Source of the DNA: Acidobacteriota bacterium
GTDB taxonomy: Bacteria > Acidobacteriota > UBA890 > WLXD01
Assembly: GCA_963666215.2 (NCBI GenBank)
Contig: CAXWPL010000002.1
Span: forward strand, 352,001 to 416,000
Reading direction: 5' to 3'
Length of the DNA: 64,000 nt
Shown: positions 28,278 through 45,162 of the stretch, one piece after another
How positions within the stretch are numbered: the first letter of the stretch is position 1
Layout: each line of letters starts with the position of its first letter
Notes under the pieces: model-generated
Told to the model about the DNA's origin: nothing
What the model saw: only the letters and a program-made list of their open reading frames with translations
Databases searched by the model: none
Program-made: the position numbers and the translations under genes

Positions 28278-29948
28278 ATGAAGCGAACCCTGTGGTTCTC
28301 AGTGATCCTGGCCGGTGTTGTTGTGCTCGCCGGCGTGTGGAGAGGCGCAGAGTCCGTGGACGCCGCAGGATCCCTGAGCGCGCAGGAGGCCTGGCAGGAA
28401 CCCCTCGAGGAGACGCAGGTGGAGCTGTGCTGCGACAGCGATCCGACCGTGCATGTGTCTCCCGGCCGCGGGCGGAGCCCGGAGGAGTTCCGCAAGCGCA
28501 CGCCGTTCAGCAGCGACGAGCTGGCGCGACTTAAGGCTGCTGCGCTTTCCTCCGACGCTGTGCCTCGAGCCGAAGACCTGCTCGACATGGCGAGCGCGCC
28601 CGCGTCGATGGCGGCGTTGTCGCCACGACTTCTGCGTAATTTCGACGGCCTCAATCAGCAGAGCGGTGGCGGTTTCTTCCCGCCCGACACGGTCGTCTCG
28701 GTGGGCCCCCAGCACGTGCTCGAAGCCACGAATGTGGCGCTGCGGCTGTCGACTCGGTCGAACCTGAATCCGATCGTCCAGACGATCCAGGCCCACTTCG
28801 CGATCAGCGGCGCCAACAAGGTCGTCACCGACCCCAAGGTCTTCTACGACGCCCGCTCCGAGCGCTTCTTCATGATGGTGCTGGTGATCGACCACACCAC
28901 GAACCAGTCGTTCGCTTACTTCGCGATCTCACGCAGTCCGACTCCGGACACGCTCGATGCGCCGACCGACTGGTGCAACTACCGAGTCACGACACACCGC
29001 AACCAGTCGTGGGGCGACTTCCCGGGCTTCGGAATGAACGACTCGTGGATTGCCATCACCACCAACAACTTCACCTTCGAGGACAGTGACTTCGTTCGCG
29101 CATTCCTGGTGGCTATCGAGAAGCCGCGACTGGTCGACAACGCGGCGCGTTGCCCACAAGCGGTCAAGGCGTTCCGCTATGCGTTCGCCGACGATGAGGA
29201 CGGTCTCACGCCGTTCACCGTGCAACCAGCGCGCCACTACGACTCGACGGGATTCGACGGCGATCCGCTATACCTGGTGAGCTCGCAGCTTTTTTTCAGC
29301 TCCGACCGCTACGCGTTCTGGCAGCTTCGGAGTGGCAAATCTCGCAAGCCGCAGCTGCGACGCACGACCGTTACGGGGGAGCTGTATTCGGTGCCACCCG
29401 ACGCGGCCCAAGCCGAGGGGGGACTGTTGTCGACCAGCGTTCAAGATGTGCTGTCCGTGGCATCCCGCAACGGCCAGCTTTGGGCCACCCACACGACGGG
29501 GTGCGAGATCGGTGGCGGCAGCAACGAAGCCTGCGTGCGGGTGGTGCAGTTCACCCCGGTGGCCGGCATCACGCCGGCGGCTTCGATCGACTACACCGCG
29601 ACGTTGCGCAATGGGCCCGACAGTTTCCTGTTTCACCCCTCTGTGGCCATCAGCAAGCGCGGCGACGTGGTTGTGGTGTTCCAGCGCAGCAAAGCGAGCA
29701 CCTTCCTTGGTAGCGCGTTCACTGGCAGACGTTTCGATCTCCGGCAGTTCGGCCCGGTGCGCTCGCTTCGCGAGGGCACCTGCCGTCTGGTGAACAACGC
29801 TGGGGGTGGCGTGGGCTCGTCGCAGCGGACCGGTGATTACACCGGCGCCCAGGCCGATCCGAACGACTCGCGCGGATTCTGGCTGGCCGGAGAGCACAGC
29901 GTTGCGTCCTGTGCGTGGGGGACGCGTGTTGCCCGAGTGCGGTACTGA
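28278..29948 (+). CDS. Secreted beta-rich hypothetical protein (possible propeller)
   Basis: Signal peptide; PPDT..VGPQH, DPKVFYD..SERF, WGDFPGFG, HPSVAI, RTGDY. Confidence 0.75.
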   Translation: MKRTLWFSVILAGVVVLAGVWRGAESVDAAGSLSAQEAWQEPLEETQVELCCDSDPTVHVSPGRGRSPEEFRKRTPFSSDELARLKAAALSSDAVPRAEDLLDMASAPASMAALSPRLLRNFDGLNQQSGGGFFPPDTVVSVGPQHVLEATNVALRLSTRSNLNPIVQTIQAHFAISGANKVVTDPKVFYDARSERFFMMVLVIDHTTNQSFAYFAISRSPTPDTLDAPTDWCNYRVTTHRNQSWGDFPGFGMNDSWIAITTNNFTFEDSDFVRAFLVAIEKPRLVDNAARCPQAVKAFRYAFADDEDGLTPFTVQPARHYDSTGFDGDPLYLVSSQLFFSSDRYAFWQLRSGKSRKPQLRRTTVTGELYSVPPDAAQAEGGLLSTSVQDVLSVASRNGQLWATHTTGCEIGGGSNEACVRVVQFTPVAGITPAASIDYTATLRNGPDSFLFHPSVAISKRGDVVVVFQRSKASTFLGSAFTGRRFDLRQFGPVRSLREGTCRLVNNAGGGVGSSQRTGDYTGAQADPNDSRGFWLAGEHSVASCAWGTRVARVRY

Positions 29949-30088
29949 TAAGGGCGATCGTAGGACCCGGATCGCCCAGCCGCGAGTGCCAACACGGATT
30001 GTCAGGCATCCTGCCGGATCCCGCCATTCCACAACCTCAGGCAAGTCTGAACACACGGAATGATCTTCCCCGCTTCGTCAAGACTCCC

Positions 30089-31567
30089 ATGAGCGCGCAT
30101 GTGAACCGCAGCGGTATCAGGCTCGTTCTCGGCCTCGCTCTCGTCTGCGCCGGGCTGTTTCTGTGTTCGGCGTGCGCTGGCTCAGAGGAGGGGAGCGCGC
30201 CTGCGTCGTCGGCCGCTCTCGGGGAGATCGATCGCCTCGTGCTCGTGACCTTCGACACGCTCCGGGCAGACCATGTGTCGGCGTACGGTTATCCGCTCGC
30301 CACCACGCCGTTTCTCGATTCGATGGCTGAAAGCGGCGTGCAGTTCAGGCGTGCCTTCGCACATTCCGCAGCCACCAAGCCGTCGCACTCCTCGATCTTC
30401 ACCTCGCTGTATCCGCTGCAGCATCGCGTGCGCAGCAACGCGCTGGTGCTCGACGAAGAGTTCGTCACGCTGGCCGAGATTCTGCGCGACGGTGGCTACA
30501 AGACAGCGGCGTTTCTGAGCATCGACGCACCCGTGGGTGGGCAGCTCGGGCAAGGATTCGAGACCTATGACGTGGAGGAGCGCGACCTCACAGTCGACGG
30601 CGCGCGGAAGGAATATCGGCACGCCGGCGAGACCATCGACGCTGCGCTGGCGTGGCTCGAAACGGTCGATCCCGATGAGCTTTTGTTCCTCTGGATTCAC
30701 GTCTACGATCCGCACAAGCCGCTGCGGCCGCCAGCCGGCCACTTCGCGACGATCAGCGTCGAGATCGAGCGCTTCGGGCCGCAAAATTTCCGCGAGCTGT
30801 TGCAGTCGCAGGGCATCGGTCCATTGAGCGACCGTGCCGTTGCCGACGTCGTCGACTACGACGCCGAGGTGCACTACGCAGACGCCGAGGTTGGGCGCCT
30901 GTATCGCGAGATGGAGGCGATGGGGCTGCAGGAAGAAACCCTCTGGGTGCTGACCTCGGACCACGGCCAGGGGCTCGGCTCGCACGGATGGTTTGGCCAC
31001 GGCAAGCAGATCTACAACTCCCAGCTGCAGGTGCCGCTGATCTTCCACACGCCCGACGGCACATTGGCTCCACGTCTGATCGAGACGCAGGTTGCTGAGC
31101 ACGTCGATCTGTTGCCGACAATCGTCGAGCTGCTCGGTGTGCCCGAAGCGGGCACCGCAGCCGTCGCCCAGCCGCTGCCGATGCAGGGCTCGTCGCTCGT
31201 GCCGTTCTTGCTCGGGCGGCGTCACGACGCCCCCAAGTGGTTCTCGTTCGGCGAGCGCAGCCGCTACATCGACGACAAGCCTCGCCAGCAGGATCGGCCC
31301 AACTACGAGGGCGGCTTCCGTTATTCGTTACAGGACCGCGAGTACAAGTACCTGCTGTTCACCGAGGGCCCCGACGAGTTCTACGACCTGCTCGCCGATC
31401 CGTACGAGGAGCACAACCTGATCGACTCTTTCGAGCACGCTGACAAGCGCGACCAGATGAGCTCGGTGCTCGCCGACATGGTCGCCAGTCTTACCAGCGA
31501 GGGGCAGGCGACATCCGTGTCGGCCGAAGACGTTGAGCGGCTCAGGAGCCTGGGCTACATCCAGTAG
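30089..31567 (+). CDS. Sulfatase-like lipoprotein with Thr at the nucleophile position and C-terminal LGY tail
   Basis: DTLRADH, ATKPSHSSIFTSLYP, HVYDPH, TSDHGQ, VPLI, YDLLADPYE, ERLRSLGYIQ*. Confidence 0.9.
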   Translation: MSAHVNRSGIRLVLGLALVCAGLFLCSACAGSEEGSAPASSAALGEIDRLVLVTFDTLRADHVSAYGYPLATTPFLDSMAESGVQFRRAFAHSAATKPSHSSIFTSLYPLQHRVRSNALVLDEEFVTLAEILRDGGYKTAAFLSIDAPVGGQLGQGFETYDVEERDLTVDGARKEYRHAGETIDAALAWLETVDPDELLFLWIHVYDPHKPLRPPAGHFATISVEIERFGPQNFRELLQSQGIGPLSDRAVADVVDYDAEVHYADAEVGRLYREMEAMGLQEETLWVLTSDHGQGLGSHGWFGHGKQIYNSQLQVPLIFHTPDGTLAPRLIETQVAEHVDLLPTIVELLGVPEAGTAAVAQPLPMQGSSLVPFLLGRRHDAPKWFSFGERSRYIDDKPRQQDRPNYEGGFRYSLQDREYKYLLFTEGPDEFYDLLADPYEEHNLIDSFEHADKRDQMSSVLADMVASLTSEGQATSVSAEDVERLRSLGYIQ

Positions 31568-31670: not shown

Positions 31671-33026
31671 ATGCATCGAAGGGGAATACCATCCGTTGCC
31701 AGTGCGACGCGCGCGCTGGTCGTGGTCGCGATTACCGTCTTGCTGACCGGCAGCCTGCCAGCCGGCGCCACCACGTACATCATGATGTCCGATGAGGACC
31801 TCGCCGACAGCTCGCCGGTTGTTGTGCGCGCACGCGTGCTCGACGCGCAGCCGTCGCCGACTGGACGTCCCTACACCGACTATCGACTCCAGGTCGAGCG
31901 CGTGGCGAAGGGTCGCGTCGCTGCCGATGCGCGGATCGTTATCAGCGTGCTCGGCGGCGGAACGCCAAGTCTACCGCAGCTGGCGGTTTGGGGCGAGCCG
32001 AGGTTCGAGGTGGGCGAGGACACGCTTCTGTTCCTGGCACCCGGCACGGCCGGGACTCCGGGCGCCTGGCAGGTGAATCACTTCGCGCTCGGCGCCTTCC
32101 GTGTGCATGAGCTCGGTGGTGTCTCGATGGCGCTGCGTTCCCTCGGCGAGATCGACGAGGTCGATAAGCCGGGCGGCGGTGAGCGCGTTGTCAGCGTGCA
32201 GCGCGCCCACCACCCTCGTGATCTGGACCGTTTCATGACCTGGGTCAAGGCGCGGAACGCCGGTGTGGACCTGCCGCAGGACTACTTCCTGGATCCGGCC
32301 GACGGAACGATGCGCAACGCCCACGACGGGTACGCTTTGCTTCTTGCCCCGTCGGGCACCCGTATCCGGTGGCCGAACTTCGACTTTGCCGCGGGAGCAC
32401 GGGTGGTGCGCTGGTTCATCGCGCGCACCCAAGCTGGCTTCCCTGGCGGTGGCCGCATCGACTTCAACCAGTCGATCAAGAAATGGGACAAGCTGAAGAA
32501 GGGCGCCATCATCGAGTATCGCGCTCCAGCGAAGCGGCGTAACGCCTTCACCTCGGGCTTCACTGCCTTCGATGGCAACAATACGATTCTGATGAACGAC
32601 CCGAACGGCGAGATTGCCAATCTGGTTGGCTGCACGGGCACGCTGGCGATTGGCGGGCCGTGGTTCATCGACGCTATCGAGCCGGAGGCCGCGAGCGGTG
32701 AGTTCCAAGCCGCGTCTGTCGGCAACTCACATCGCAAGCGGGGCAAGATCTTCCGCAACACCGTTAGTGCCGACATCATCAGCAACAATGGCCTCAAATG
32801 TTTCTACAACGCCAGTCCCAACAAGCGTAAGCATGCTCGGCAGCTCTACATGCACGAGCTCGGCCACACGTTGGGCCTGGGGCATTCGCTGGTCACGGTC
32901 GCCCTGATGTTCCCCAGCATCAGCCCGATCCCGAAAGACGTCATCAAGCCAGACGACTCGAAGGGCATCCGAATCAACGGCGGGATGCGCTACACGGAGG
33001 CCGGCGTGGCCTACAAAGCCCTGTAG
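31671..33026 (+). CDS. Secreted matrixin-type (metzincin) metalloprotease, paralog 1
   Basis: Signal peptide, HELGHTLGLGH, Met-turn ALMFP. Confidence 0.88.
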   Translation: MHRRGIPSVASATRALVVVAITVLLTGSLPAGATTYIMMSDEDLADSSPVVVRARVLDAQPSPTGRPYTDYRLQVERVAKGRVAADARIVISVLGGGTPSLPQLAVWGEPRFEVGEDTLLFLAPGTAGTPGAWQVNHFALGAFRVHELGGVSMALRSLGEIDEVDKPGGGERVVSVQRAHHPRDLDRFMTWVKARNAGVDLPQDYFLDPADGTMRNAHDGYALLLAPSGTRIRWPNFDFAAGARVVRWFIARTQAGFPGGGRIDFNQSIKKWDKLKKGAIIEYRAPAKRRNAFTSGFTAFDGNNTILMNDPNGEIANLVGCTGTLAIGGPWFIDAIEPEAASGEFQAASVGNSHRKRGKIFRNTVSADIISNNGLKCFYNASPNKRKHARQLYMHELGHTLGLGHSLVTVALMFPSISPIPKDVIKPDDSKGIRINGGMRYTEAGVAYKAL

Positions 33027-33050
33027 CCGCTAGCCTGCATCCGAGACGTA

Positions 33051-33092
33051 GCACCACGGCCCCGGGCTGCACGCGGCTCGGGGCCGTGGTGC
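33051..33092 (+). terminator. GC-rich hairpin after protease 1 (no U tract)
   Basis: GCACCACGGCCCCGGGC..GCTCGGGGCCGTGGTGC. Confidence 0.45.
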
Positions 33093-33418
33093 GTCAAGGC
33101 CGGCCTCGCGCGCCGCGCGCATCTCAACCCGGGTCGTGACGCGGGCAAGTTGAACCGCTCTGCAGGCGGGCGCTGCGCTCGCGGTGCGCACTGCCCCGCG
33201 GTGCGCACTGCGCCACAGGCGCCGCTCGGTGCGGCTCGGGGCCTCTCGAGGCCCCCGAAGCCTCTTCTCGTTGGCGATTGTCGTGGGCGGTCCACCGATG
33301 TCCGTGCGTGGCTTAGCAAATCCATCCACAGCAGATCAGAAGTGACTTTAAACAAGCAATACTGTTCCATAGTGGCCCACGAACGCCGTCAATACCTGTT
33401 GCGGATCTGGGGGGCATC

Positions 33419-34771
33419 ATGGATCGAAGACGAACATCACGCGCCGCCACTTCTCTGCGAGCGCTGGCGACAATCGCCGGCCTGTCTCTGATCGTGGGAA
33501 ACCTGGCAGTGGGCGCGACGACGTACGTGATGGTGTCGGACGAGGATCTGGTCGACAGCTCTTCGGTTGTTGTGCGCGCCCGCGTGCTCGACAAACAACC
33601 GGCGCCCGACGGGAGTCCCTACACCGACTATCGGATGCAGGTGGATCGCGTGGCGAAGGGCAGGATCGCTTCCAGCGCACGTATCGTGATCAGCGTTCTC
33701 GGTGGCGGGACTGCTGGACGACCGCAGTTGGCCCTGTGGGGTGTGCCGGAGTTCGACGTTGGCGAGGAGACGTTGCTGTTCCTCTCGGGGAGGTCGGGCA
33801 GCTCTTCGGGGTCTCGAGGCGCATGGCAGGTGAATCACCTGGCCCTGGGCGCGTTCCAGGTGCACGACATCGGTGGCTCGAAGGTCGCGCTCCGCGCTCT
33901 CGCCGAGATCGACGAGATCGAGAACTCCGATGCGCGAGAGCGGCCGATGAGTGTGCAGCGGGCTCACCACCCACGGGACGCCGATCTCTTCATGGGCTGG
34001 ATCAGGGCTCGCGAGGCTGGCGTGGACTTGCCGCAGACGTATTTTCTCGAGCCTTCGGACGGTCTGCTGCGGAACATCCACGACGGGTTCACGACTTCGC
34101 GTAGCGCGTCTAACTATCGCCTCCGCTGGCCAGACTTCGATCTTCAGCGAACCGTGCCGTGGAACGTTGCGGGCTATCAGGCCGGGTTGCCTGCCGGCGG
34201 GCGGTCCGACTTCAACCAGGCGCTTCGCAAGTGGGATCAGCTCGCCAAGGCGATCATCGACTACCGCGGCCCTGCCGTACGAAACAACGCGTTGGCGAGC
34301 GGATTCACCCGCTCGGACGGCAGGAACACGCTCCTGTTCAACGATCCGAACGGCAGGATCCCTGACCTGGTGAACTGCACAGGAGCTGTGGCCGTCGGCG
34401 GTCCGTGGTACGCGGATACGTCCGCGTCGGGGTGGTCCCATACCAAGCGCCGGATGATGTTCCGCAGTATCGTCGAGGCCGACATCATCAGCAACAACGG
34501 GCTGGGTTGCTGGCTCAAGAACAGCCCGAACACGCGGAAGCACGCCCGCCAGGTCTACATGCACGAGCTTGGCCACACCCTGGGCTTGGGTCATTCGTGT
34601 GGCGATTCCAAAAGTGGCTCGTGCAACACGAAGGCAAAGGACAACGCGTTGATGCGCGCCTACCTCTCCAAAGTGCCTGCCGACGTGATCCGACCCGACG
34701 ATTCGAGAGGTGCGCGACTCAACGGTGGGCTGCGCTACAACCGGCGCGGTGTGGGCTTCGTGAGCTTGTAG
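33419..34771 (+). CDS. Secreted matrixin-type metalloprotease, paralog 2
   Basis: Same architecture; HELGHTLGLGHSCGD, NALMRA. Confidence 0.88.
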   Translation: MDRRRTSRAATSLRALATIAGLSLIVGNLAVGATTYVMVSDEDLVDSSSVVVRARVLDKQPAPDGSPYTDYRMQVDRVAKGRIASSARIVISVLGGGTAGRPQLALWGVPEFDVGEETLLFLSGRSGSSSGSRGAWQVNHLALGAFQVHDIGGSKVALRALAEIDEIENSDARERPMSVQRAHHPRDADLFMGWIRAREAGVDLPQTYFLEPSDGLLRNIHDGFTTSRSASNYRLRWPDFDLQRTVPWNVAGYQAGLPAGGRSDFNQALRKWDQLAKAIIDYRGPAVRNNALASGFTRSDGRNTLLFNDPNGRIPDLVNCTGAVAVGGPWYADTSASGWSHTKRRMMFRSIVEADIISNNGLGCWLKNSPNTRKHARQVYMHELGHTLGLGHSCGDSKSGSCNTKAKDNALMRAYLSKVPADVIRPDDSRGARLNGGLRYNRRGVGFVSL

Positions 34772-34962
34772 GTGGCGACGTAGGTCCGCGGGTGTCCGTC
34801 GTTGTCAAGCAGCTTCGCCAGGGGTACGTCGCTTGGCTTCGAGCCGGTGCCACGATCGCCGCTCGTGCGAGACGTTGCCTGGTTGCCGTCGGGCTCCCCG
34901 AGGACCTGAGCGGGTGACGGACTCGATCCATCTCCGGGTGCCGAAGGTGGCCGTGGTCTGCA

Positions 34963-36298
34963 ATGAGTCAGCGATCCTCTCTTGTTGTCCTGGGCGTTTT
35001 GACCGCTTGTATCGTGCTCGCCGTCCTGACGGGGGGAATGCCGGCGGCGGCCACGACGTACGTCATGATGTCGGACGAAGACCTGGCGGACAGCTCGCCG
35101 GTTGTGGTCCGTGCGCGCGTCCTGGACAAGCAGCCGGCGCCAGATGGGCGTCCGTACACCGACTACCGCCTGCAGGTTGAGCGCGTTGCCAAGGGTCGGA
35201 TCGCCGTCGACACGCAGATCGTAGTCAGCGTCCTCGGCGCGGGGGTGCCGGGTCGGCCGCAGCTCTCGTTGTGGGGCGTGCCGGAGTTCGAGCCAGGCGA
35301 GGAGACGTTGCTGTTTCTCGACGGCTCCTCGGCTGGTACGCCAGGCTCATGGCAGGTGAACCACCTGGCCCTCGGGGCGTTCCGTGTTCTCGACATCGGT
35401 GGAGTGCAACTCGCCCTACGCGCCCTGGGAGAGATCAACGAGGTGGAACATCCCGATGCGGGCGACAGGCCCATGAGCGTTCGGCGCGCCCACCATCCGC
35501 GCGATCTCGATCGGGTCATGGGTTGGATCAAGGCGCGAGATGCAGGCGTTGATCTGCCACAGGACTACTTTCTCGAACCGGCGGAAGGTCTCGCGCGAAA
35601 CGCCCACGACGGGTACACCACCTTGAGCACGGCCTCCAGCTATCGCGTCCGGTGGCCGGACTTCGATCGCGGCAGCATTCTCGTTTGGTTTATCGCTCGC
35701 AACCAACCTGGCCTGCCGGACGGCGGACACAGAGCCTTCAACCAGGCACTGAACAGGTGGGACGATCTTGCCAATGCGATCATCGACGTGTGGACGCCGG
35801 CCCCAAGGAACGACTCGCTGGTGTCGGGTTTCTCGGCCAGCGACGGAAACAACACGCTCCTGATGAACGATCCCAACCACAGGATCCCCGATCTGGTGAA
35901 CTGTACTGGAGCGCTGGCCGTCGGCGGCCCCCTGGCACGTTGACTCGGAGGCGGCAGGGTGGTCGCACATCAAGCGCGGCATGATGTTCCGCAATATCGT
36001 AGAGGCCGACATCGTCAGCAACAACGGAATCGCCTGCTGGTTCAGGCAGAGTTCGAAGAAGTGGATGCATGCGCGGCAGCTCTACATGCACGAGCTCGGC
36101 CACACGTTGGGGCTCGGGCACTCGTGTGGTGATTCGGCTAGCGGGCCGTGTGACACGAGGTCGGAGAGCAACGCGCTGATGCGGGCGTCGACCTCGAAGA
36201 CTCCCTCCGACGTGATCCGAGCGGACGACTCGAGAGGGGTGCGATTCAACGACGGGCTGCGCTATACCCGTCGCGGCGTCGGATTCATCGATCGCTAG
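34963..36298 (+). pseudogene. Matrixin-type metalloprotease paralog 3, split by a +1 frameshift
   Basis: Removing one C from the C5 run at 35928-35932 gives GGPWHVDSEAAGWSHIKRGMMFRN, collinear with paralog 2; may be a sequencing error. Confidence 0.8.
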
Positions 36299-37119
36299 AT
36301 CGTGACGCCGAACCGGCCCTTGAGCGCGAAGGCGATGACGATCGTCAGAATGAAGAAGACGATCAGCCAGTGCGTCTCGAAGCCGAACAGGCCGACCTCT
36401 CGGTCGGGGTAGTCGACGCTGATCGAGGTCACCGACGAGTCGGCGGGTAGTGACGGCTCGGCCGGATAGAGCAGCTGATCGACGAACCGCGGTGCCAGCC
36501 GATCGGGCGAACGTCGAACGACGTTGTTGCCGACATCGATGGTCTTGGTCACCGTCTCACCGCCGATGCGTATCGGGAGCTCGTAGCTGCCCGGCTGGCT
36601 GGCCACGATACGGAAGGCGAGCTCACGTACGGCGGGAAACCAGGAGATGCTGCTGTCGGCGCCGAGCCCCTCCGGGAAGTCGACCTCCACGTCGGGACGC
36701 GTGCTGCCGGCCGACTCCGCCACGGTGATCTTCATCAGCACCGGCTCGCCAACCTTCAATCCCTCGTAGCCGTAGTGGAACTGCAGCTGCGCAATCACCA
36801 GCACAAACGGCAGCATCATCCAGAACATCGGGATGAGGTTGAGACGCATGTAGTTGAGGTTGTGCCTCAGGATGTCCCACTGGGCCCGGAAGATGGCGCG
36901 GATGTCATCGTTGAACAGGCGGATCTCGAACAACCCCGCGGCGATCTTGGCCTTTACGGCGGTGACCGCGTCCTGATTCGACGTTGCCTTGTAGCCCAGC
37001 AGCATGCCGATCGAGGCGATCACCGACACCACGCCGAGGCCGACCATTGGATGCAGCCCCCGGAAAGGCAGCAGTAGCAGGTCAAAGAGCGTGCGTAGGA
37101 GGCTGTTCAAGAGAGACAT
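36295..37119 (-). CDS. Three-TM membrane protein resembling DUF106/EMC3/TMCO1 (Oxa1 superfamily)
   Basis: N-terminal amphipathic helix, TM1, helical hairpin (SNQDAV..KAKI..RAQWDILRHN), Met/Pro-rich TM2 (LIPMFWMMLPF), beta-rich loop, TM3 starting HWLIVFF; family call from topology only. Confidence 0.6.
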   Translation of the reverse strand: MSLLNSLLRTLFDLLLLPFRGLHPMVGLGVVSVIASIGMLLGYKATSNQDAVTAVKAKIAAGLFEIRLFNDDIRAIFRAQWDILRHNLNYMRLNLIPMFWMMLPFVLVIAQLQFHYGYEGLKVGEPVLMKITVAESAGSTRPDVEVDFPEGLGADSSISWFPAVRELAFRIVASQPGSYELPIRIGGETVTKTIDVGNNVVRRSPDRLAPRFVDQLLYPAEPSLPADSSVTSISVDYPDREVGLFGFETHWLIVFFILTIVIAFALKGRFGVTI

Positions 37120-37155
37120 TCGTTCAGATACCGTGGATACCGTTCGGATGGGTGA

Positions 37156-37419
37156 GATCTCCCTTATTACTTGAGATCGAAGCGACGGGCGGCTCTGAGG
37201 AGCTAGGAAATGTAGCCCAGGCCCTGAAGCTTCTTGCGGATGTCGTCCTCTGAGTCGGCCTCCTCGAGAACCGCGAGCTCCTTTTCGAGCGCGTGCGTGA
37301 TGAACTCTTCGACCGACGAGTAGCCGGCGATGTTGGCGTACTTCTTCACCTTCGCGATGAGGTCCTTGTCGAGCTTGACCCTGCCGCCTCCGAACATGAT
37401 GTGATCTCCCTTATTACTT
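37156..37419 (-). repeat. Identical 17-bp direct repeat AAGTAATAAGGGAGATC (37156-37172, 37403-37419)
   Basis: Direct reading; the copies flank the 64-aa gene. Confidence 0.9.
37203..37397 (-). CDS. 64-aa RHH/CopG-like protein with LGY tail
   Basis: RVKLDKDLIAKVKKYA..GYSSVEEFITHALEKEL, then SEDDIRKKLQGLGYIS*; strong RBS. Confidence 0.85.
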   Translation of the reverse strand: MFGGGRVKLDKDLIAKVKKYANIAGYSSVEEFITHALEKELAVLEEADSEDDIRKKLQGLGYIS

Positions 37420-37432
37420 TCGCGCTAGTCAA

Positions 37433-39512
37433 CTATTCTGCGGGTTCGGGCTCGAGCGTGACCGGCGTGCTGCCGTCGGGGAACCCCTCGATACCAAACT
37501 CGGCGAGGAGGGTCGCGGCCAGATTCTGCAACGACGTCGCCTGACGGCCGAGCCGCTTGTTGGTGAACAGAACGCCCGGCACCGTCTCGTTCCTGATCCA
37601 TGATGTGGTCGCCTGACCAGTCGTCGAGGTTGTCGCCGATCCACTCCACAGGCATGCCGCCGAGCGCCGACGACCCCGAGCATGCCGCCGAGCGCCGACG
37701 ACCCCCGCGTGTGCCTTTCGCGAAGCCGACGATAATGTCGGGTCCGATCTCGAGGTGGCCACGGTCCTTGAAGTCGCGCTCCCGCACGTAGACGCGGGTG
37801 ACGGCCGGTTGGCCGGTCACGGGGTCGATTGCCGCAAGCAGGTCTCGCTCGAGCTGCTCGATCAACTCCTGGCGGTCGCCGGGCGCTACCACGCCTCGCG
37901 GCTCGCGGCCTCGTAGGTTCAGGTACAGCCCGCTGATGCCGAGCCCATAGGCCTGCGTGCGCCGCCAGTTGACGCCGGTCCAGAAGTCGGCCACCGGCAG
38001 CTTCGTACGGCGCTCGAGCTCCATGTATCCGCTGTCGACGAGCCAGGTGTTCAGATGGAACGAGCGTCGCCAGCTCGTGAAGCCGTGATCCGACATGACG
38101 ACGAGAGTGATGTCGTCGCCGGTTTCGTCGATGTAGTCGAGTGTACGGCCGACCATCTCGTCGAGGCGCTCGTACGCCTGGGGAATGGTGTCGGCGTAGG
38201 GCTCGTGCAGCTCGGGAACGTGCGCCGGATGGCCGGGGTCGAGCGTGACGCCCCAGAGGACGTGCGAGAGCTGGTCGAGGTTGCCGACGTAGTAGAAGAG
38301 GAACTCGCCCGTCCAGTTGTCGAGCATCCAGTCGTACTGCAGCCGATTCTCGCGGCCGATGATGCTCGCCTGGTGGACGAACTCGCCCGTGTCGAACAAA
38401 TCCCACTGGATCGCCTTGGTGTCCTCGGGCATCTCCTGGGTGTAGAAGCGCCCCGTGGCCTCGGCCATCTCCGCCGCGAAGCCCTCGGGGCTCGAGATCG
38501 GCATCGCGGGCGCCATCGGATCCATCTGGATCGGGCTCACGTAGAGCTCGAACTCGGGCTCCACCGACTTGAGGTAGAAGCGCACGATGCCGCTGATTGA
38601 TTGCAGGTAGGGGATGAGCTCGAACTCGACCTCGACCCAGTCGCTCCACTCGCCGGCCTCGAGCAGCAGCTCCTCATCGCCAACCACGAGCTTGGTGCCG
38701 CCGACGTCCGCGTCGATGTAGGCCGTGAATTCGCTCACGAGCTCTTCGGGCTCGATCAGCAGCGGGTGCGGTGGGCCGTACAGGGCACCCTCGAAGACAC
38801 CGTCGACGACGTCGGCCGGGTAGATCTTGCCGCCCGAGATGTTGCGGTTGAACTGGGTACGATCGGTGGTGAAGAAGTGGAACTCACCAGAGGTGCCGCG
38901 GAGGTCGGGCGTGCCCATACCGGAAAGCTCGTAGGTGCCGACTCCGACCGGCGGGAAGTTGGCCGGCATACGAATCATCGTGCTCTCGAAGCCGTTTTCT
39001 TCGAGCTGCTGCCAGAACGTGTCGCCGTATCGGGCGAGCTCGATGCCGCCGCCCGACAGGGGCAGCCGCCACTTGCCGATGTCGATCGTGCGGCCGACCG
39101 GGATCTCCTTGCTCGTGGCTTGATACGGCGTTCCGAACGGGAAGGGTGAGTCTTCGACCTCTCGGTGCAAGAAATCGAATATGCCGTGGCCGCCGCTATC
39201 GAGGCCGGTGATGAAGTTCGACCAGGCAACTGGACTCTGCGGCGAGTACGCGGTTTCGAGCGGCGAGAAGCCGCCTTGCTGGGCGACACGCGCCAGGTTC
39301 GGGAGGCGGCCCTGCTCGATGAGCTCGGTTGTGAACTCGTGGTCCATGCCGTCGAAGCCGAGGACGATCATGCGCTGACGTGGCGATTGGGCGCCCGCCG
39401 ACGCTGCTACCAGCGAGCTGGCGACAACCGCGACCGCAGGTGCCGTAAGTGCCGTAAGTGCCAGCAGGCCGATGGAACCGAGCAGAGTCCGAGTACGCGT
39501 TCGGAGGGTCAT
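37433..39512 (-). CDS. Exported alkaline-phosphatase-superfamily (NPP/type I phosphodiesterase-like) protein; apparent frameshift near 37590
   Basis: Signal peptide ..AGA-Q, VLGFDGMD, PQSPVAWSNFITG, DQLSH, MSDHGF, WSGDH; natural tail ETVPGVLFTNK..LAATLL lies in the frame ending 37433. Confidence 0.88.
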
Positions 39513-41746
39513 GGCGCGTTGTCTCCGGCATTCGAAAGCGTCAAGGCCTTCCCGTCCATATGAGGTGGCGGCTGCAGGCCGAACTGCTCGAGCGCGGTGG
39601 GGGCGATGTCGATGAGCGACGGCTCGTCTTCTTGCATATCACGGTTGCAGAAGATCACGCCCGGCACCAGCCGTGGATCGACGCAATGGTCACCGCTCCA
39701 CGCCTTGACGTTGTCCTCGAACAGCGGTGCCGAAACAACGCCGGTGGCGCAGTCCCACGAGGTTCGGTAGCCGCGGTTGTAACCGATGATGAACTCGGGG
39801 GCGTTCTCGAGATAGGGGCCCTGGTACAGCTTGGCGGTATCGAACGCTTCGATGATCGCCACCTCGCCGGTTTCAAGGTCGATGAGGCCCTCGAGCTTGG
39901 CGGCGATCTCTTCCTTGAGCGCCGCGACCTCGGTCTTGTGGACGATACCCTGACCCTCGCGGTCCTTGATGTTGAAGAACATGCCCGACAGGCCGAGGCA
40001 ATAGGCCTTGGTCTGTGACCAGTCAACATCGAGCAACCACTCGGCTTTTCCTGCCTCGGCGCCCGACTCGGTCGCGGTCGGCTTCAGCGTGAGGTAGCCG
40101 TTGTCGAGTAGCCATCGATTGAGGTTCACACCGCGGCGGAAGGAGGCGAAGCCGTGGTCCGAGAGCACCATCAGTAGGTCGCCGTCGCGCAGCTTGTCGA
40201 TGACCTCGCCGACCAGCTCGTCGTTGCGGATGTAGAGCTCTTCGATCGTGTCGTGGCAATCGCTTCTGTCGCCATTGCCGTTGGTTGCAGCGCCATTCCG
40301 GCTGTTCCCACCGGCCGCCAGCGCAGCCGGATGATCGTTCTCCAGATACCGCCAGAACATGTGCTGGATGCGGTCGGTGGCGTCGAACACGCACACCAGG
40401 CAGCCCTTGTGCAGGCGGTCCCAGGCCGCCCAGAACATCTCCTTGCGCTCGTCGTCGATGTCGAACGTCAGCTGCTTGAAGTGGCGGTCCTCAATGACCT
40501 TCTCGTTGAGCGCCCAGGTGTCTTCGGCGAGGCCGAGCGTCGAGTACTTACCCTGTAGCTTCGACAGATAGATCGCGTAGTAGTCGGGATGCGAGATGGG
40601 CATCGCCGGCTTTTCCGGATCCAGAGCGATGGGTGTCATGTAGAGCGAGAAATGAGGTTCGAGCTCGGTGATCATGATCCGGACAATACCCCTGACCTTG
40701 ACGCCCGGGACGGCGGGGAATGCCAGCTCGGTCCAGTCAGACAGCTCGTTGACCTTCAGCGATAGGTCCTTGTCGCCGACCTTGAGCTCGACGGTCCCAG
40801 TGGTCACATCGAAGGAGCCCGAGAGCGGCAGCTCGAGGGGCGGCGTTCCCACCCGCATGGAGTTCTCGGGGCCGGTGAGCGTGCCCTCGAACGCGTTGCC
40901 GTTGACTGTCACCGGCATGCGCATGCCGCCCTCCTTGAACTTGCCCTCTTCGGGCTTGTTCGTGAAGAGCAAGAACGTGCCCTGTGTCCCGAGTAGGTCC
41001 GGCACACACATCGCTGAAAGCTGGGCTCCATAGAACCGGTCGGGAGGGAAGGTAATCGGCACCCGCAGCACAGTGCTCCAGATGTTGTGCTCGCCGAGTA
41101 TCGTCCAGAAGGGCTTCGATTTGCGCAGTAGCCGCAGCTCAGGCTTGTCTCGCGGAATCTGGAACGGCCCGAGCTTGAGGTACCTGTCGACCGAGCCGAT
41201 CTTGGTGGACGACAGCACGGGCAGGTAGGTCCGTCGGTCGCGGTCGAGAAAGTCGTAGATGTTGTGGCGCGCCGGGTGGCTGCCGGTGGAGAACGACGAC
41301 CAGGCCACCGGAGAGATCGACGGGAACGTGGTCTTGAGCGGCTTGTAGGAGCCCATCTCGCCGAGCCGCTTGAAGTTGGGCAGCTTGCCCTCGGCCATGA
41401 AACGGTCGGTGAGCTGCGGGTCTTGCCCGTCGAAGCCCACGACGATCATCCGCTTGATCTTCGGGGTCGCCCTCGTTCGCCTCGTGAGCGCCCGCCACAG
41501 CATGCGGAACGGCCAGATCAACAGCGACAGGAACGCCACCAGCATCGTTGTGAACAGCACCATGAAGCTGGTCACGAAGGCGAAACCCGCTCCCGGGCCA
41601 ACGTAGGCCTCGGCTACCGTTGGCGTTAGCGTAGCGGCCGCCATTAGCGCGAGCGTTACGGCGATCGCAACGCGGCGAGCGCTTGCGCTGCCGTCTTCGA
41701 TTCGGATTCGACTAGATCGCCCTGTCACAGCGTTCGCACCGGCCAT
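39509..41746 (-). CDS. Membrane-anchored alkaline-phosphatase-superfamily (NPP-like) protein with N-terminal YVGPG motif
   Basis: Signal-like segment ending AEA-YVGPGAG, TM helix, basic stretch, VGFDGQD, PSISPVAWSSFSTG, DRIQH, LSDHGF, WSGDH, DIAPT. Confidence 0.92.
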   Translation of the reverse strand: MAGANAVTGRSSRIRIEDGSASARRVAIAVTLALMAAATLTPTVAEAYVGPGAGFAFVTSFMVLFTTMLVAFLSLLIWPFRMLWRALTRRTRATPKIKRMIVVGFDGQDPQLTDRFMAEGKLPNFKRLGEMGSYKPLKTTFPSISPVAWSSFSTGSHPARHNIYDFLDRDRRTYLPVLSSTKIGSVDRYLKLGPFQIPRDKPELRLLRKSKPFWTILGEHNIWSTVLRVPITFPPDRFYGAQLSAMCVPDLLGTQGTFLLFTNKPEEGKFKEGGMRMPVTVNGNAFEGTLTGPENSMRVGTPPLELPLSGSFDVTTGTVELKVGDKDLSLKVNELSDWTELAFPAVPGVKVRGIVRIMITELEPHFSLYMTPIALDPEKPAMPISHPDYYAIYLSKLQGKYSTLGLAEDTWALNEKVIEDRHFKQLTFDIDDERKEMFWAAWDRLHKGCLVCVFDATDRIQHMFWRYLENDHPAALAAGGNSRNGAATNGNGDRSDCHDTIEELYIRNDELVGEVIDKLRDGDLLMVLSDHGFASFRRGVNLNRWLLDNGYLTLKPTATESGAEAGKAEWLLDVDWSQTKAYCLGLSGMFFNIKDREGQGIVHKTEVAALKEEIAAKLEGLIDLETGEVAIIEAFDTAKLYQGPYLENAPEFIIGYNRGYRTSWDCATGVVSAPLFEDNVKAWSGDHCVDPRLVPGVIFCNRDMQEDEPSLIDIAPTALEQFGLQPPPHMDGKALTLSNAGDNAP

Positions 41747-41750
41747 CCGT

Positions 41751-43085
41751 TCAGCTCGCTTTTGGTTCGTTCTGGTCGTCGCTCTCGTTTCTCTCGTGGT
41801 CTCTCTCACATTCTCTCTCCAGCAGACCGGCCAGCTCGCCGATCCATAAGTCGCCGTCGATGGGCTGCGGCGAGAGCAAGAACGCGTCGTCGTAGGTATG
41901 CATTCCGACGAGGTCGGTACGATCGAAGGTGCGCGTCGCCCTGGGCGACGCCTTGAGATCGAATCCCGGCTCGGCCAGAACGACCAGATCCGGACCTTTC
42001 GGAACCCGCGGGCCCGCGTAGATCGCGCTAGCGTCGTAGACTTCGCGAATCGCAGCCGCGCCATCATACCGCAGCTCGCGCAGCCGGTTTTGTAGCTCGA
42101 ACATCAGTGATTTCGCCTCTCCCGGCGCCACGCTGCCGCGCGCGAAGCGGCCGCGACGGTGGATGTAGATGCGGCCGGGATCGAGGGCGAAGGCGCGCGA
42201 ACGCCCGGAGATGGTCTCGAGTCCCAACTGCGGCTCCGAGTCGAACTCCAGGTAGCCGTTCTCCTGCAGCCAGTGGTTGAGCTGGACCTCCTGGCGGATG
42301 GCGCAGAACCCATGGTCGGACAGCAGCCAGGTGCGCTCGCGACAATTCAGCCGATCGAGGATCTCGCCGATCAGCGCGTCGACGGCGCGATGGTAGTCAA
42401 GCGCTTGTTCATGCCGTGGGTGCGAAGGGTCGACGAGGGAGTCCCAAAGGTAGTGATACAGGCGGTCGGTTCCGGTCACGACGATCTGCAGAAAGTCCCA
42501 GTCGACCGACTCCGAGAGGTGGATGAGGGCTTCGCGCCGCGTACGCAGCGACTCGTCCAGCTGTTCGAACAACAGGTCGTGGTCGGTTCGGCAGCGCCCG
42601 GTGTCGATGTCGATGCGGTAGCCCATGCGCCGTAATGGCGCCAGGTGCGTGAGGGGCTTGATTGACTTGGCGAGATCGATCGCCACGAACCCCGAAACGA
42701 TCGCGCCGGGGATGGAGCGTGCCGGGTAGGTTGCCGGTTGGTTGAGCACGACGGATGTGAGACCGCGAGCGCCGAGTCGGTCCCACAAGGTGTCAACCTG
42801 AAGGTCACGGAAGCTCGGAAACCGTAGCTCGTAGGTGTCGACATCGATGTCGGTAAAGCCGAAGATGCCGTGCGTGCCGGGGTCGACGCCGGTCATGAAG
42901 CTCGACCAGCTCACCGACGAGATCTCGGGCAACGACGCGCGGATCTTGCGTAACGAGCCTGATGGGCGAGACTCGATCAGCTCCGCGAGCCGGGGCATGA
43001 CCCCGGAGCCGGTGAGTTGCAGAATCAACCCGTGCGGCACTCCGTCGAGCCCGATGACGCAGGTCCGTCGTCTACCTCCGTTCAT
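41751..43085 (-). CDS. Cytoplasmic alkaline-phosphatase-superfamily (NPP-like) protein
   Basis: No signal peptide; IGLDGVP, PEISSVSWSSFMTG..HGIFGF, DRLYH, LSDHGF, GMHTYDDA. Confidence 0.92.
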   Translation of the reverse strand: MNGGRRRTCVIGLDGVPHGLILQLTGSGVMPRLAELIESRPSGSLRKIRASLPEISSVSWSSFMTGVDPGTHGIFGFTDIDVDTYELRFPSFRDLQVDTLWDRLGARGLTSVVLNQPATYPARSIPGAIVSGFVAIDLAKSIKPLTHLAPLRRMGYRIDIDTGRCRTDHDLLFEQLDESLRTRREALIHLSESVDWDFLQIVVTGTDRLYHYLWDSLVDPSHPRHEQALDYHRAVDALIGEILDRLNCRERTWLLSDHGFCAIRQEVQLNHWLQENGYLEFDSEPQLGLETISGRSRAFALDPGRIYIHRRGRFARGSVAPGEAKSLMFELQNRLRELRYDGAAAIREVYDASAIYAGPRVPKGPDLVVLAEPGFDLKASPRATRTFDRTDLVGMHTYDDAFLLSPQPIDGDLWIGELAGLLERECERDHERNESDDQNEPKAS

Positions 43086-43095
43086 GGGCCCGACT

Positions 43096-43695
43096 CTACA
43101 GGTAGCCCAGCGCTTGCAGTCGCTGCTTGATCGCCTCTTCCTCTTCGGGCGTTGTGTCGTCGTCCTCGCCGGGCGGGACGTAGCCGAGCAACTCGAGCGA
43201 GGTGAGGATCTTGTCGAGGCTCTGTTGCAGCGTCTCGGCCTCGGTATCGCACACAATCTCGGGCTTCAGCGGTTCTTCGTACGGGTCCGAGATCCCTGTG
43301 AAGTTCTTGATCTCGCCGGCAAGCGCCTTCTTGTACAGGCCCTTGGGGTCGCGCTCCGACAGGTGCTCGATTGAGCAAGTCGCGTAGACCTCGACGAAGT
43401 TGTCCATGCTCTCGCGCACCTCGTCACGCACCGATCGGTACGGCGAGATGGCCGCCGAGATCGCCACCACACCGTTGCGCGACAGCAAGTTGCAGACGTA
43501 GCCGATGCGTCGAATGTTGATGTCGCGGTCTTCCTTCGAGAACGTGAGGCCCTTGCTGAGGTTGGTGCGGACCTCGTCGCCGTCGAGGATCTCAACCCGG
43601 TGGCCGCGCTCGCGGAGTAGGGGAGCGAGCGCGTTCGAGATCGTCGACTTTCCGGCTCCTGAGAGACCGGTGAACCAGAGGGTGAAGCCTTGCAT
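43096..43695 (-). CDS. cysC: Adenylyl-sulfate (APS) kinase with extra LGY tail
   Basis: WFTGLSGAGKST, LDGDEVR, ISPYR, RDPKGLY, FTGISDPYE; tail EEEEAIKQRLQALGYL*. Confidence 0.97.
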   Translation of the reverse strand: MQGFTLWFTGLSGAGKSTISNALAPLLRERGHRVEILDGDEVRTNLSKGLTFSKEDRDINIRRIGYVCNLLSRNGVVAISAAISPYRSVRDEVRESMDNFVEVYATCSIEHLSERDPKGLYKKALAGEIKNFTGISDPYEEPLKPEIVCDTEAETLQQSLDKILTSLELLGYVPPGEDDDTTPEEEEAIKQRLQALGYL

Positions 43696-43771: not shown

Positions 43772-44947
43772 CTAGGCCTTGACGGCGGCCGGCTGCTCGA
43801 TGCCCTGAAAATGCTGCTTGAGGATCGCGGCTATTTCCGGCCGGGTGAACTCGGCCGGTAGGTCCTCGCCGTTTCCGAGCATCTCGCGGATGTTGGTGCC
43901 GCTCAGGAACACGTGGTCTTCCTTGCCGTGCGGGCAGGTTTTTGTCGATCCCATGTTGCCGCAGGCGTTGCAGAAGAACGCATGGTCGAAGAAGAGCGGC
44001 GTGATGCCGATCTCCAACCGATCAAACTCCTGGAAAATCACGTGAGCATCGTAGGTGCCGTAGTAGCCGCCAACCCCAGCGTGATCGCGACCCACGATGA
44101 AGTGTGTGCACCCATAGTTCTTGCGCACGATGGCGTGGAATACGGCCTCACGCGGGCCGGCGTAGCGCATCGCCGCCGGCAGAATCGACATCGCCACGCG
44201 ATCTGGCGGGTAGTAATTGTCGAGCAGAGCGAGGTAGCACTTGAGGCGCACGTCGGCTGGAATGTCGTCCGACTTGGTCTCGCCCATGATCGGGTGGATC
44301 AGCAGCGCATCGACCATCTCGAGGGCGCACTTCTGTAGGTACTCATGTGCCCGGTGGATCGGGTTACGCGTCTGGAATGCGGCCACGCTGTTCCAGCCCT
44401 TGGCCTTGAACAGCACACGCGTCTCGCGCGGGTCAAGCCGGTAGCGTTCCAGCTCGTCGTCTTGCGGCCGCTCGATCACCGTGACCTGGCCGCCGAGGTA
44501 AACATCGCGGGAACGGCGCAGGTAGCCAACTCCGGGGTGCGCGTCGTCGGTTGTACGGAGAACCTTGAGCGCTTCGCGCTCTTTGTCGGGGGTGTAGATG
44601 TTGGAGATCTCGATCATGCCGAACACGGTGCCAGCCTCGTCGACGAGCGCGGCCTCGGTATCGGGCGCCAACCTCTGCGCTTCCTCGGGGCTGCAGCTGA
44701 GCGTGATCGGGATCGTCCAGGGCAGGCCGTTGGCCAGCCGGCCGTTCTCACAGACGCTGTCGTAGTCCGACCGACCCAGGAAGCCGGTGAGTGGGCTCAG
44801 CGCTCCGGTCGCGATCATCTCGAGGTCGCTTGCCTCGCGGCGGTTCATTACGATCTCGGGTAATCCGCCGAGTCGAGCGCGGAGCGCCGTAGTTTCGTCG
44901 TCGGTTGCGAAGCGGCTTACCAGGCGGCCGCCGTGGGCTTTGATCAT
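43772..44947 (-). CDS. sat: Sulfate adenylyltransferase (ATP sulfurylase)
   Basis: [36 protein letters not shown]. Confidence 0.98.
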
Positions 44948-45162
44948 CAGAGGTACCCCAGGTTTTCGAGTTTCTTACGAATCGCACTGAGCTCGTCGGG
45001 TGGCAGATCGTTGTTCCCCGGCTCTGGGCTCAGGGTGCCGACGAGGTCGCGCAGGACGAACACGATGAAGTCTGTCGGCGAGCTGAAACCGGATCCGTCG
45101 ATGACCTCGACGAGCCGGTTGTACAGCGGCCGCGGAATCTTGATGCTGACGCGATCGCTCAT
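44947..45162 (-). CDS. 71-aa RHH/CopG-like protein with LGY tail
   Basis: [30 protein letters not shown], then [15 protein letters not shown]; stop overlaps the sat start. Confidence 0.88.

Follow-up and report, generated by a model that had tools for sequence, protein, structure and literature searches.

A bacterial DUF106/Ylp1-type member of the Oxa1 superfamily closes a conserved module with two phosphatase-like enzymes and a small tailed protein

The window analysed here, i.e. the whole stretch of 64,000 nucleotides (nt) taken from contig CAXWPL010000002.1 of an Acidobacteriota bacterium (positions 352,001 to 416,000; assembly GCA_963666215.2), carries on its minus strand a co-directional array composed of a ribbon-helix-helix (RHH)-like gene of 71 amino acids (aa), the genes of an ATP sulfurylase and of an adenosine 5'-phosphosulfate (APS) kinase, three genes of the PF01663 family, an open reading frame (ORF) of 64 aa and, in last position, the gene that is the subject of this work. 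Its product, hereafter the DUF106-like protein, belongs by sequence to the DUF106/Ylp1 branch of the Oxa1 superfamily. The genes of the array, together with one sulfatase-family gene located nearby, are the following.

36295..37119, minus strand: DUF106/Ylp1-type Oxa1-superfamily gene, a single ORF of 274 aa with an ATG start
37203..37397, minus strand: sm64, an RHH-like protein of 64 aa with an acidic linker and a C-terminal GLGYIS, delineated by locus comparison and a weak RHH_1 match
37425..39512, minus strand: PD3, a predicted exported PF01663 enzyme of the alkaline-phosphatase superfamily, with signal peptide
39509..41746, minus strand: PD2, a PF01663 enzyme with an N-terminal membrane hairpin (hairpin motif at 41586-41605)
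41751..43085, minus strand: PD1, a third PF01663 paralogue, with no transmembrane segment at its likely start (M at 43085)
43096..43695, minus strand: APS kinase ending in IKQRLQALGYL (LGY tail)
43772..44947, minus strand: ATP sulfurylase
44947..45162, minus strand: a second RHH-like small protein of 71 aa with an LGY-type tail, directly upstream of the ATP sulfurylase
29915..31567, plus strand: PF00884 sulfatase-family protein ending in VERLRSLGYIQ (LGY tail), a facultative but frequent neighbour

The DUF106-like gene occurs as a single copy in its genome, in which a canonical YidC is also encoded on another contig. With a single sequence as input, AlphaFold2 (AF2) gave an unusable model of the protein (predicted local distance difference test, pLDDT, of 45), and the model used here was computed from an alignment of 79 diverse homologues, with a mean pLDDT of 96.0 and a predicted template modelling score (pTM) of 0.87. 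From N- to C-terminus, it displays these elements, where TM stands for transmembrane.

Residues 2-19: H0, an amphipathic N-terminal helix
Residues 24-46: TM1
Residues 49-68 and 73 to ca. 94: helical hairpin, predicted to be cytoplasmic, its second helix being continuous with TM2 up to residue 116
Residues 127-250: strands of a beta-rich, Ig-like insert, predicted to be periplasmic
Residues 251-266: TM3, with W251 as its first residue

All the elements that had been read from the sequence in the original prediction, namely the amphipathic helix, TM1, the hairpin, TM2, a beta-rich insert of ca. 130 aa and a TM3 starting with W, are found in this model. The TM2 had also been described as Met-rich, which holds for the window copy (3 Met) but not as a family trait, the mean of the 79 members being 1.2 with M98 and M101 occurring in 30 and 33 of them, respectively. 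Both hairpin helices have a pLDDT above 95 and the segment is net basic, with family means of 8.2 K+R vs 4.5 D+E; the corresponding means are 14.4 vs 16.3 for the insert and 1.8 vs 0.4 for the C-terminal tail. Because these charges obey the positive-inside rule, an N-out/C-in orientation is predicted, and a three-TM core with its hairpin in the cytoplasm and its beta domain in the periplasm fits the model. Within the insert, residues 118-200 form an Ig/filamin-like beta sandwich that is followed by a conserved extension of 50 residues, and it is this part (200-250) that holds the most conserved periplasmic motifs of the family, RRSP.R and LYPAEP.LP. The insert matched Ig/filamin-like PDB entries with a Foldseek E-value of ca. 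3e-3 and, when realigned to the PDB with VIA, gave Z-scores of up to 6.3 (root-mean-square deviation, rmsd, of 1.8-2.8 over 70-81 residues), these matches being confined to the insert. W251 is kept in 77 and Q49 in 72 of the 79 members. With regard to a lipid-exposed hydrophilic groove, polar residues are retained at S32 (62 of 79), K/R44 (72), Q/H111 (77) and S/T259 (74).

Three profiles, built from close members (A1), from the 79 diverse members (A2) and from the 21 most distant members (A4), were compared with the sequences of all PDB chains. Each of them matched a single membrane protein, MJ0480 (Ylp1, a YidC-like protein; PDB 5c8j), the archaeal DUF106 protein of Methanocaldococcus jannaschii, with E-values of 1.1e-11, 4.6e-11 and 2.8e-11, respectively, in agreement with the DUF106/Oxa1-superfamily kinship proposed in the original prediction. 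The alignment covers ca. 113 profile positions and runs from H0 through TM1 and the hairpin to TM2, with TM3 matched less strongly. The order of the elements is the same in both proteins, and K/R44, Q49 and W251 each have an identical counterpart in MJ0480: the Lys with which TM1 ends, the Gln that opens the hairpin and the Trp that opens TM3. For archaeal YidC, the available text of Lewis and Hegde (10.1101/2020.12.20.422553) draws attention to a polar residue conserved in H1 and to a Trp conserved at the interface. The DUF106-like protein differs from MJ0480 in being bacterial, in having a 130-residue, Ig-like and predicted periplasmic insert in place of the short loop between TM2 and TM3, in its less polar TM3, in scoring below the gathering threshold of PF01956 and in being fixed within a four-gene module (see below).

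Searches of Pfam and NCBIfam returned no match for the DUF106-like protein at E<=0.01. At E<=10, the sole Pfam family was PF01956 (EMC3_TMCO1) with 12.5 bits (E 0.12) for a gathering cut-off of 27.1 bits; two of four homologues gave weak matches to it (18.3 and 15.9 bits) and the other two none, so that none of the five members, the window protein included, reaches the cut-off. PF02096 (60KD_IMP; YidC/Oxa1/Alb3) was not matched even at E<=10, and the protein has three TM helices rather than five: the bacterial YidC belongs to the same superfamily but is built on a core of five TM helices and carries another kind of periplasmic domain. The eukaryotic EMC3, GET1 and TMCO1 likewise have a three-TM Oxa1-type core with a cytosolic coiled coil, and none of them was matched by the family profiles among PDB chains at E<=10. 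In a structural search with the AF2 model, the best of 48,161 chains was 7tut_8 of the endoplasmic reticulum multipass translocon (Z 8.8, rmsd 3.4) and YidC of Bacillus (3wo7_A) reached Z 7.4 over 148 residues (model 1-273), both values lying within the range that helical models reach by chance according to the search tool's own note. The 7tut chain has 177 residues, of which 136 align across residues 18-274 of the model with the insert skipped; the tool names the entry title only, and we take this chain to be TMCO1. Foldseek of the same model against the PDB yielded no match at E<=0.001 and no Oxa1 member, its matches being restricted to the insert. The structural similarity of the TM core to Oxa1 members is consistent with the kinship, not decisive. 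Judged from the profile matches, the DUF106-like protein falls within the DUF106/Ylp1 branch, the three-TM branch of the Oxa1 superfamily, as a bacterial representative with an added, presumably periplasmic, Ig-like domain between TM2 and TM3.

Relatives of this protein are numerous, with 1754 among clusters at 90% identity and, among representatives of clusters at 50% identity, 2148 at E<=1e-3, 1407 at E<=1e-10 and 359 at E<=1e-30. The 50%-identity relatives are nearly all 265-295 aa long and aligned over their full length, and their large number indicates that the gene is no chance ORF. None of 120 listed relatives carries a precomputed Pfam domain and 13 of them bear the JGI label "uncharacterized membrane protein (DUF106 family)". 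A search restricted to relatives of 30-144 aa retrieved 29 fragments of the family, forms of 170-210 aa falling outside this range. A match was detected in 87 of 301 genomes (60 of 185 genera) in a sample of the window's own phylum, a count that takes in one unpublished genome (G049) and becomes 86/300 without it, in 16 of 151 genomes in the phylum sample of locus L065 (Myxococcota by record title) and in 4 of 121 in that of L056 (Gemmatimonadota). By record titles, the family occurs in Acidobacteriota, Myxococcota, Gemmatimonadota, Gammaproteobacteria and Eiseniibacteriota and, by Atlas clusters, in Aminicenantota and Planctomycetota. In a quick tree of 95 proteins, the distant rows of the Myxococcota sample fall in two separate deep clades, and records from Gammaproteobacteria, Gemmatimonadota and Eiseniibacteriota plus one from Myxococcota (L044, L046, L055, L056, L078, L065 and L043) nest within the acidobacterial clade (SH-aLRT 98), pointing either to some transfer of the module between phyla or to binning errors in which contigs were misplaced.

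Paralogous YidC pairs occur in bacteria and the protein belongs to the Oxa1 superfamily; both facts would favour a second, general-purpose insertase that shares the housekeeping work of YidC. This is improbable when set against the distribution, which is patchy even in the window's own phylum sample, and against the occurrence of the gene as a single copy that always lies within one module. The presence of a canonical YidC in the same genome and the patchiness seen in all three phylum samples rather suggest that the DUF106-like protein has no housekeeping role.

The module became apparent from the comparison of 80 related loci taken from named genome records. In each of the 80 loci, sm64 directly precedes the DUF106-like gene and shares its strand, with a median gap of ca. 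19 nt and an overlap in 4 loci. PF01663 genes are found upstream in all 77 loci for which upstream sequence exists, the remaining three starting within ca. 360 nt of the DUF106-like gene. The usual order is PD2, PD3, sm64 and DUF106-like gene, the last of which is the final gene of this conserved module; homologues keep to this type of operon rather than being found mostly outside it. The original prediction had placed the gene at the end of a sulfate-activation operon. This applies to the window but not in general since, within 10 kb, an ATP sulfurylase gene occurs in only 20 of the 80 loci, an APS kinase gene in 25 and a sulfatase-family gene in 26, and the sulfate-activation genes are a facultative add-on to the module. 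The two constant partners, sm64 and the upstream PD2 with its membrane hairpin, had not been recognised as such.

This arrangement extends to distant relatives, as seen in 14 strong loci of the Myxococcota sample, whose DUF106-like proteins share 26-36% identity with that of the window. All 14 have, upstream and in the same orientation, a PD2-like gene, which adjoins the small gene or the DUF106-like gene in 13 of them; in L092 it is located 3.9 kb from the small gene. A small gene is present in 13 of the 14, as sm64 in 11 (detected by tblastn) and as a tandem-RHH form ending in GLGYIE in L094 and L096. The locus L095 has only PD2 and the DUF106-like gene, the two overlapping. A PD2-DUF106 fusion, suggested there by an open frame of 1072 aa, was rejected because the two genes lie in different, overlapping frames.

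As for sm64 itself, GLGYIS ends the protein in 79 of 80 loci, the identity is 64-89% across phyla and the mean column identity reaches 78% (32 sequences). Its 45 N-terminal residues are RHH-like, with weak Pfam matches to RHH_1 (E 0.072) and DUF6364. Nothing significant was obtained when its profile was compared with the PDB, and the best match, the C-terminus of the eukaryotic ribosomal protein uL13 (E 0.051), was taken as chance. In the tandem-RHH partners (L094:988-1330 and L096:9800-10150, both on the minus strand), two RHH repeats in one chain share one GLGYIE tail, which suggests a dimeric mode of action for the RHH part, with one tail per dimer. Co-folding of the DUF106-like protein with sm64 gave a score of 0.00 in two runs made with no controls, which is evidence neither way.

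Two further observations concern the window's own copies. A 17-nt string, AAGTAATAAGGGAGATC, that includes the ribosome-binding site occurs on the minus strand before both sm64 (37405-37421) and the DUF106-like gene (37155-37171). The PD3 copy is frameshifted right after SGDHIMD at ca. 37596 (region 37433-37600, minus strand), and the conserved PD3 C-terminus (VPGVLF, ATSLQNLAA, EFGI) continues in another frame, which is closed by a stop codon at 37433-37435; either the assembly is wrong here or the gene was broken recently.

The position of sm64 immediately upstream of the DUF106-like gene in every locus and its RHH-like pattern, albeit with weak RHH_1 and DUF6364 matches, could be explained by a membrane sensor or anchor, in which the Ig-like domain would monitor the periplasm and sm64, as the regulator of the operon, would be bound or set free by the cytoplasmic hairpin. 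We consider this unlikely: sm64 is more conserved across phyla than we would expect of an operon-specific repressor, its tail is common to enzymes such as APS kinase and sulfatase-family proteins, and the repeat AAGTAATAAGGGAGATC is not visible in the upstream stretches examined in the 80 other loci.

The second constant partner, PD2, starts with a signal-peptide-like segment and AxA. Next comes Y[IV]GPGAGFA, which hardly varies, then a TM helix and, ahead of the catalytic domain, a stretch rich in R and K. Its catalytic domain is predicted to be cytoplasmic and its short loop periplasmic. PD3 is predicted to be exported, from a signal peptide in the window copy and a lipobox Cys in most relatives. 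In the window genome, the hairpin motif is found in one long open frame only, that of PD2, a second match being located in a frame of 98 codons. Across the 301-genome sample, the back-translated Y[IV]GPGAG pattern is present in 83 of the 87 genomes that carry the DUF106-like gene vs 9 of the 214 that do not, and three of these nine are incomplete genomes (75-83% complete) of two families in which the module is usual; the reversed pattern, used as a control, matched a similar handful of genomes. Furthermore, L097:8474-9423 encodes a DUF106-like protein of 140-170 aa that lacks the Ig insert (probability 92.9% and E 3.6e-7 when compared with A2 by hhalign), directly preceded by a free-standing hairpin protein in which AYVGPGPG and a TM helix are followed by a basic stretch and then an acidic tail, with no enzyme domain. 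Taken together, L095 and L097 point to the hairpin as the element on which the DUF106-like protein acts or to which it binds. The M13 procoat, the classical YidC-only substrate, has a hairpin topology, and the PD2 N-terminus would resemble such procoat-type substrates.

That the DUF106-like protein is always found with two phosphatase-like enzymes and a small tailed protein indicates that it is probably the membrane core of an undescribed envelope machine. The explanation that we favour, with a probability of roughly one in two, is that of a client-dedicated Oxa1-type insertase, probably retained as a TM partner, around which a two-sided enzyme module would be organised, sm64 being its adaptor; to the homology and the module observed above, it adds contacts, a sidedness and an activity that we infer. 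The protein would be the dedicated membrane core of the module and no general insertase, its groove and TM3 face receiving, and probably retaining, the N-terminal membrane hairpin of PD2. PD2 would thereby be anchored at the cytoplasmic face, while the Ig-like domain, putatively periplasmic, would extend to the exported PD3; one membrane site would then have two related phosphoesterase-type enzymes at work, one on each face. The sm64 protein would serve as an adaptor in the cytoplasm, its synthesis keeping pace with that of the membrane protein. Such a retention of the hairpin would resemble the association of EMC3, GET1 and archaeal YidC, each via its last helix, with a small TM protein, as described in the available text of Lewis and Hegde (10.1101/2020.12.20.422553). 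The small TM partners of EMC3, GET1 and TMCO1 are EMC6, GET2 and C20orf24, respectively; here the proposed partner would be the N-terminus of an enzyme.

Several points weigh against this explanation. The contacts between the proteins of the module are putative, and the cytoplasmic placement of PD2 is a prediction from the positive-inside rule. The co-occurrence of hairpin and DUF106-like gene depends on synteny, and its counts are inflated by related genomes; L097 is one case with a modest E-value, and the best structural match (Z 8.8) falls inside the chance range for helical models. Finally, alignments indicate that TM3 is less polar than in MJ0480, with hydrophobic residues at several positions occupied there by S or T and only S/T259 kept among them (74 of 79 members), and the groove may therefore be a poor path for translocation.

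The prediction that two PF01663 paralogues lie on opposite membrane faces would also suit a translocator or scramblase acting on a small or lipid-linked intermediate. Here a phospho- or sulfo-ester bound to the membrane would be produced or altered by PD2, flipped by the groove and processed by PD3 on the periplasmic side. Genes for ATP sulfurylase, APS kinase and sulfatase-family proteins often lie nearby, at the frequencies given above, and a paper bears the title "Lipid scrambling is a general feature of protein insertases" (PMC11047089). Nevertheless, no lipid-synthesis or glycosyltransferase gene is constant in the module over the 80 loci, the family has few polar residues in TM3, and flipping of an ester leaves both the conserved hairpin loop and the hairpin-only partner in L097 unexplained. 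We regard this possibility as doubtful but worth keeping in view next to the client-dedicated insertase.

The LGY tail is shared well beyond sm64. In the window, the pattern acidic...[IV]..[RK]L..LGY[IL] ends the sulfatase-family protein, sm64, the APS kinase and the second RHH-like protein (44947-45162). The whole genome contains 28 open frames, each of 60 aa or more, in which LGY is either terminal or followed by at most 3 residues (e.g. C1:7906-9780, C1:454275-456878 and C2:724757-727480), most of them ending in L..LR[AS]LGY[ILV]Q and corresponding to large proteins with signal peptides and sulfatase-like N-termini. In the 80 loci, 125 frames bear such a tail, 80 of which are sm64 and the rest mainly sulfatase-family proteins, ATP sulfurylases and APS kinases. 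It is found on cytoplasmic proteins (APS kinase, RHH proteins) and on signal-peptide proteins alike.

A module acting as the sorting machine of all LGY-tailed proteins was considered and a tight link rejected, since tail-rich genomes and carriers of the DUF106-like gene overlap loosely. Indeed, 35 genomes have at least two R[AS]LGY[ILV]Q-stop tails and 16 of them carry the gene, while 71 of the 87 carriers have fewer than two, in a test that is weak because this narrow pattern does not capture tails whose last residue is R, K, E or S. A looser link between module and tails may exist, the LGY tail being a wider motif that is used by the module and is not explained by the module alone. The same data bear on the proposal, made in the original prediction, that a short hydrophilic peptide, such as a sulfated tyrosine segment of the LGY tail, crosses the membrane through the groove. 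LGY-tailed proteins do cluster around the module, and genes for 3'-phosphoadenosine 5'-phosphosulfate (PAPS) synthesis are adjacent in the window. No tyrosine sulfotransferase-like gene was found among the window genes, however, the PAPS genes are facultative, the tail occurs on proteins of both compartments and its genomic distribution follows that of the gene loosely; we regard this proposal as highly improbable. Two pairs of frames on different contigs have identical last 30 residues (C1:7906-11294 with C3:413971-417357, and C1:759699-760169 with C4:1061999-1062469) and correspond either to duplicated regions or to assembly redundancy.

In the portions of the literature available to us, three-TM proteins (DUF106, EMC3, GET1 and TMCO1) are ascribed to archaea and eukaryotes and the five-TM YidC to bacteria (PMC5868721, Anghel 2017; 10.1101/2020.12.20.422553; PMC8887752). 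No treatment of a bacterial DUF106-type family was found in those portions, which leave aside supplements such as the 460-homologue lists of PMC8887752, and a 2026 review contains no occurrence of DUF106, Ylp1 or "archaeal". Whether the ancestral insertase core had three or five TM helices is said to be unclear in the available text of a 2025 review on YidC (PMC7618853). A large bacterial three-TM family (2148 cluster representatives) makes this question testable by phylogeny: if the bacterial clade is sister to the archaeal clade and not nested in it, the three-TM form is older than the split between bacteria and archaea. It may be speculated, with more doubt than confidence, that we are dealing with an old and widespread bacterial three-TM DUF106-type lineage, now a client-dedicated insertase or holdase coupling cytoplasmic and periplasmic phosphoesterase-type enzymes into one transmembrane machine. 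The system further provides a simple bacterial model, with an Oxa1-type protein and one obvious candidate client, and an uncharacterised four-gene envelope module that often occurs alongside sulfate-activation and sulfatase-family genes.

Finally, some genes of the window have a narrower distribution. Metzincin-like genes with weak similarity to Peptidase_M10 and Reprolysin (31671-36298, plus strand) converge on the DUF106-like gene and overlap its stop by 4 nt; such neighbours are found in none of the 80 related loci. The second RHH-like protein (44947-45162) has no Pfam match, and relatives of it that bear the tail are present in L004-L008. According to a per-locus assignment by best match, PD1 occurs only in the closest relatives, L003-L008.

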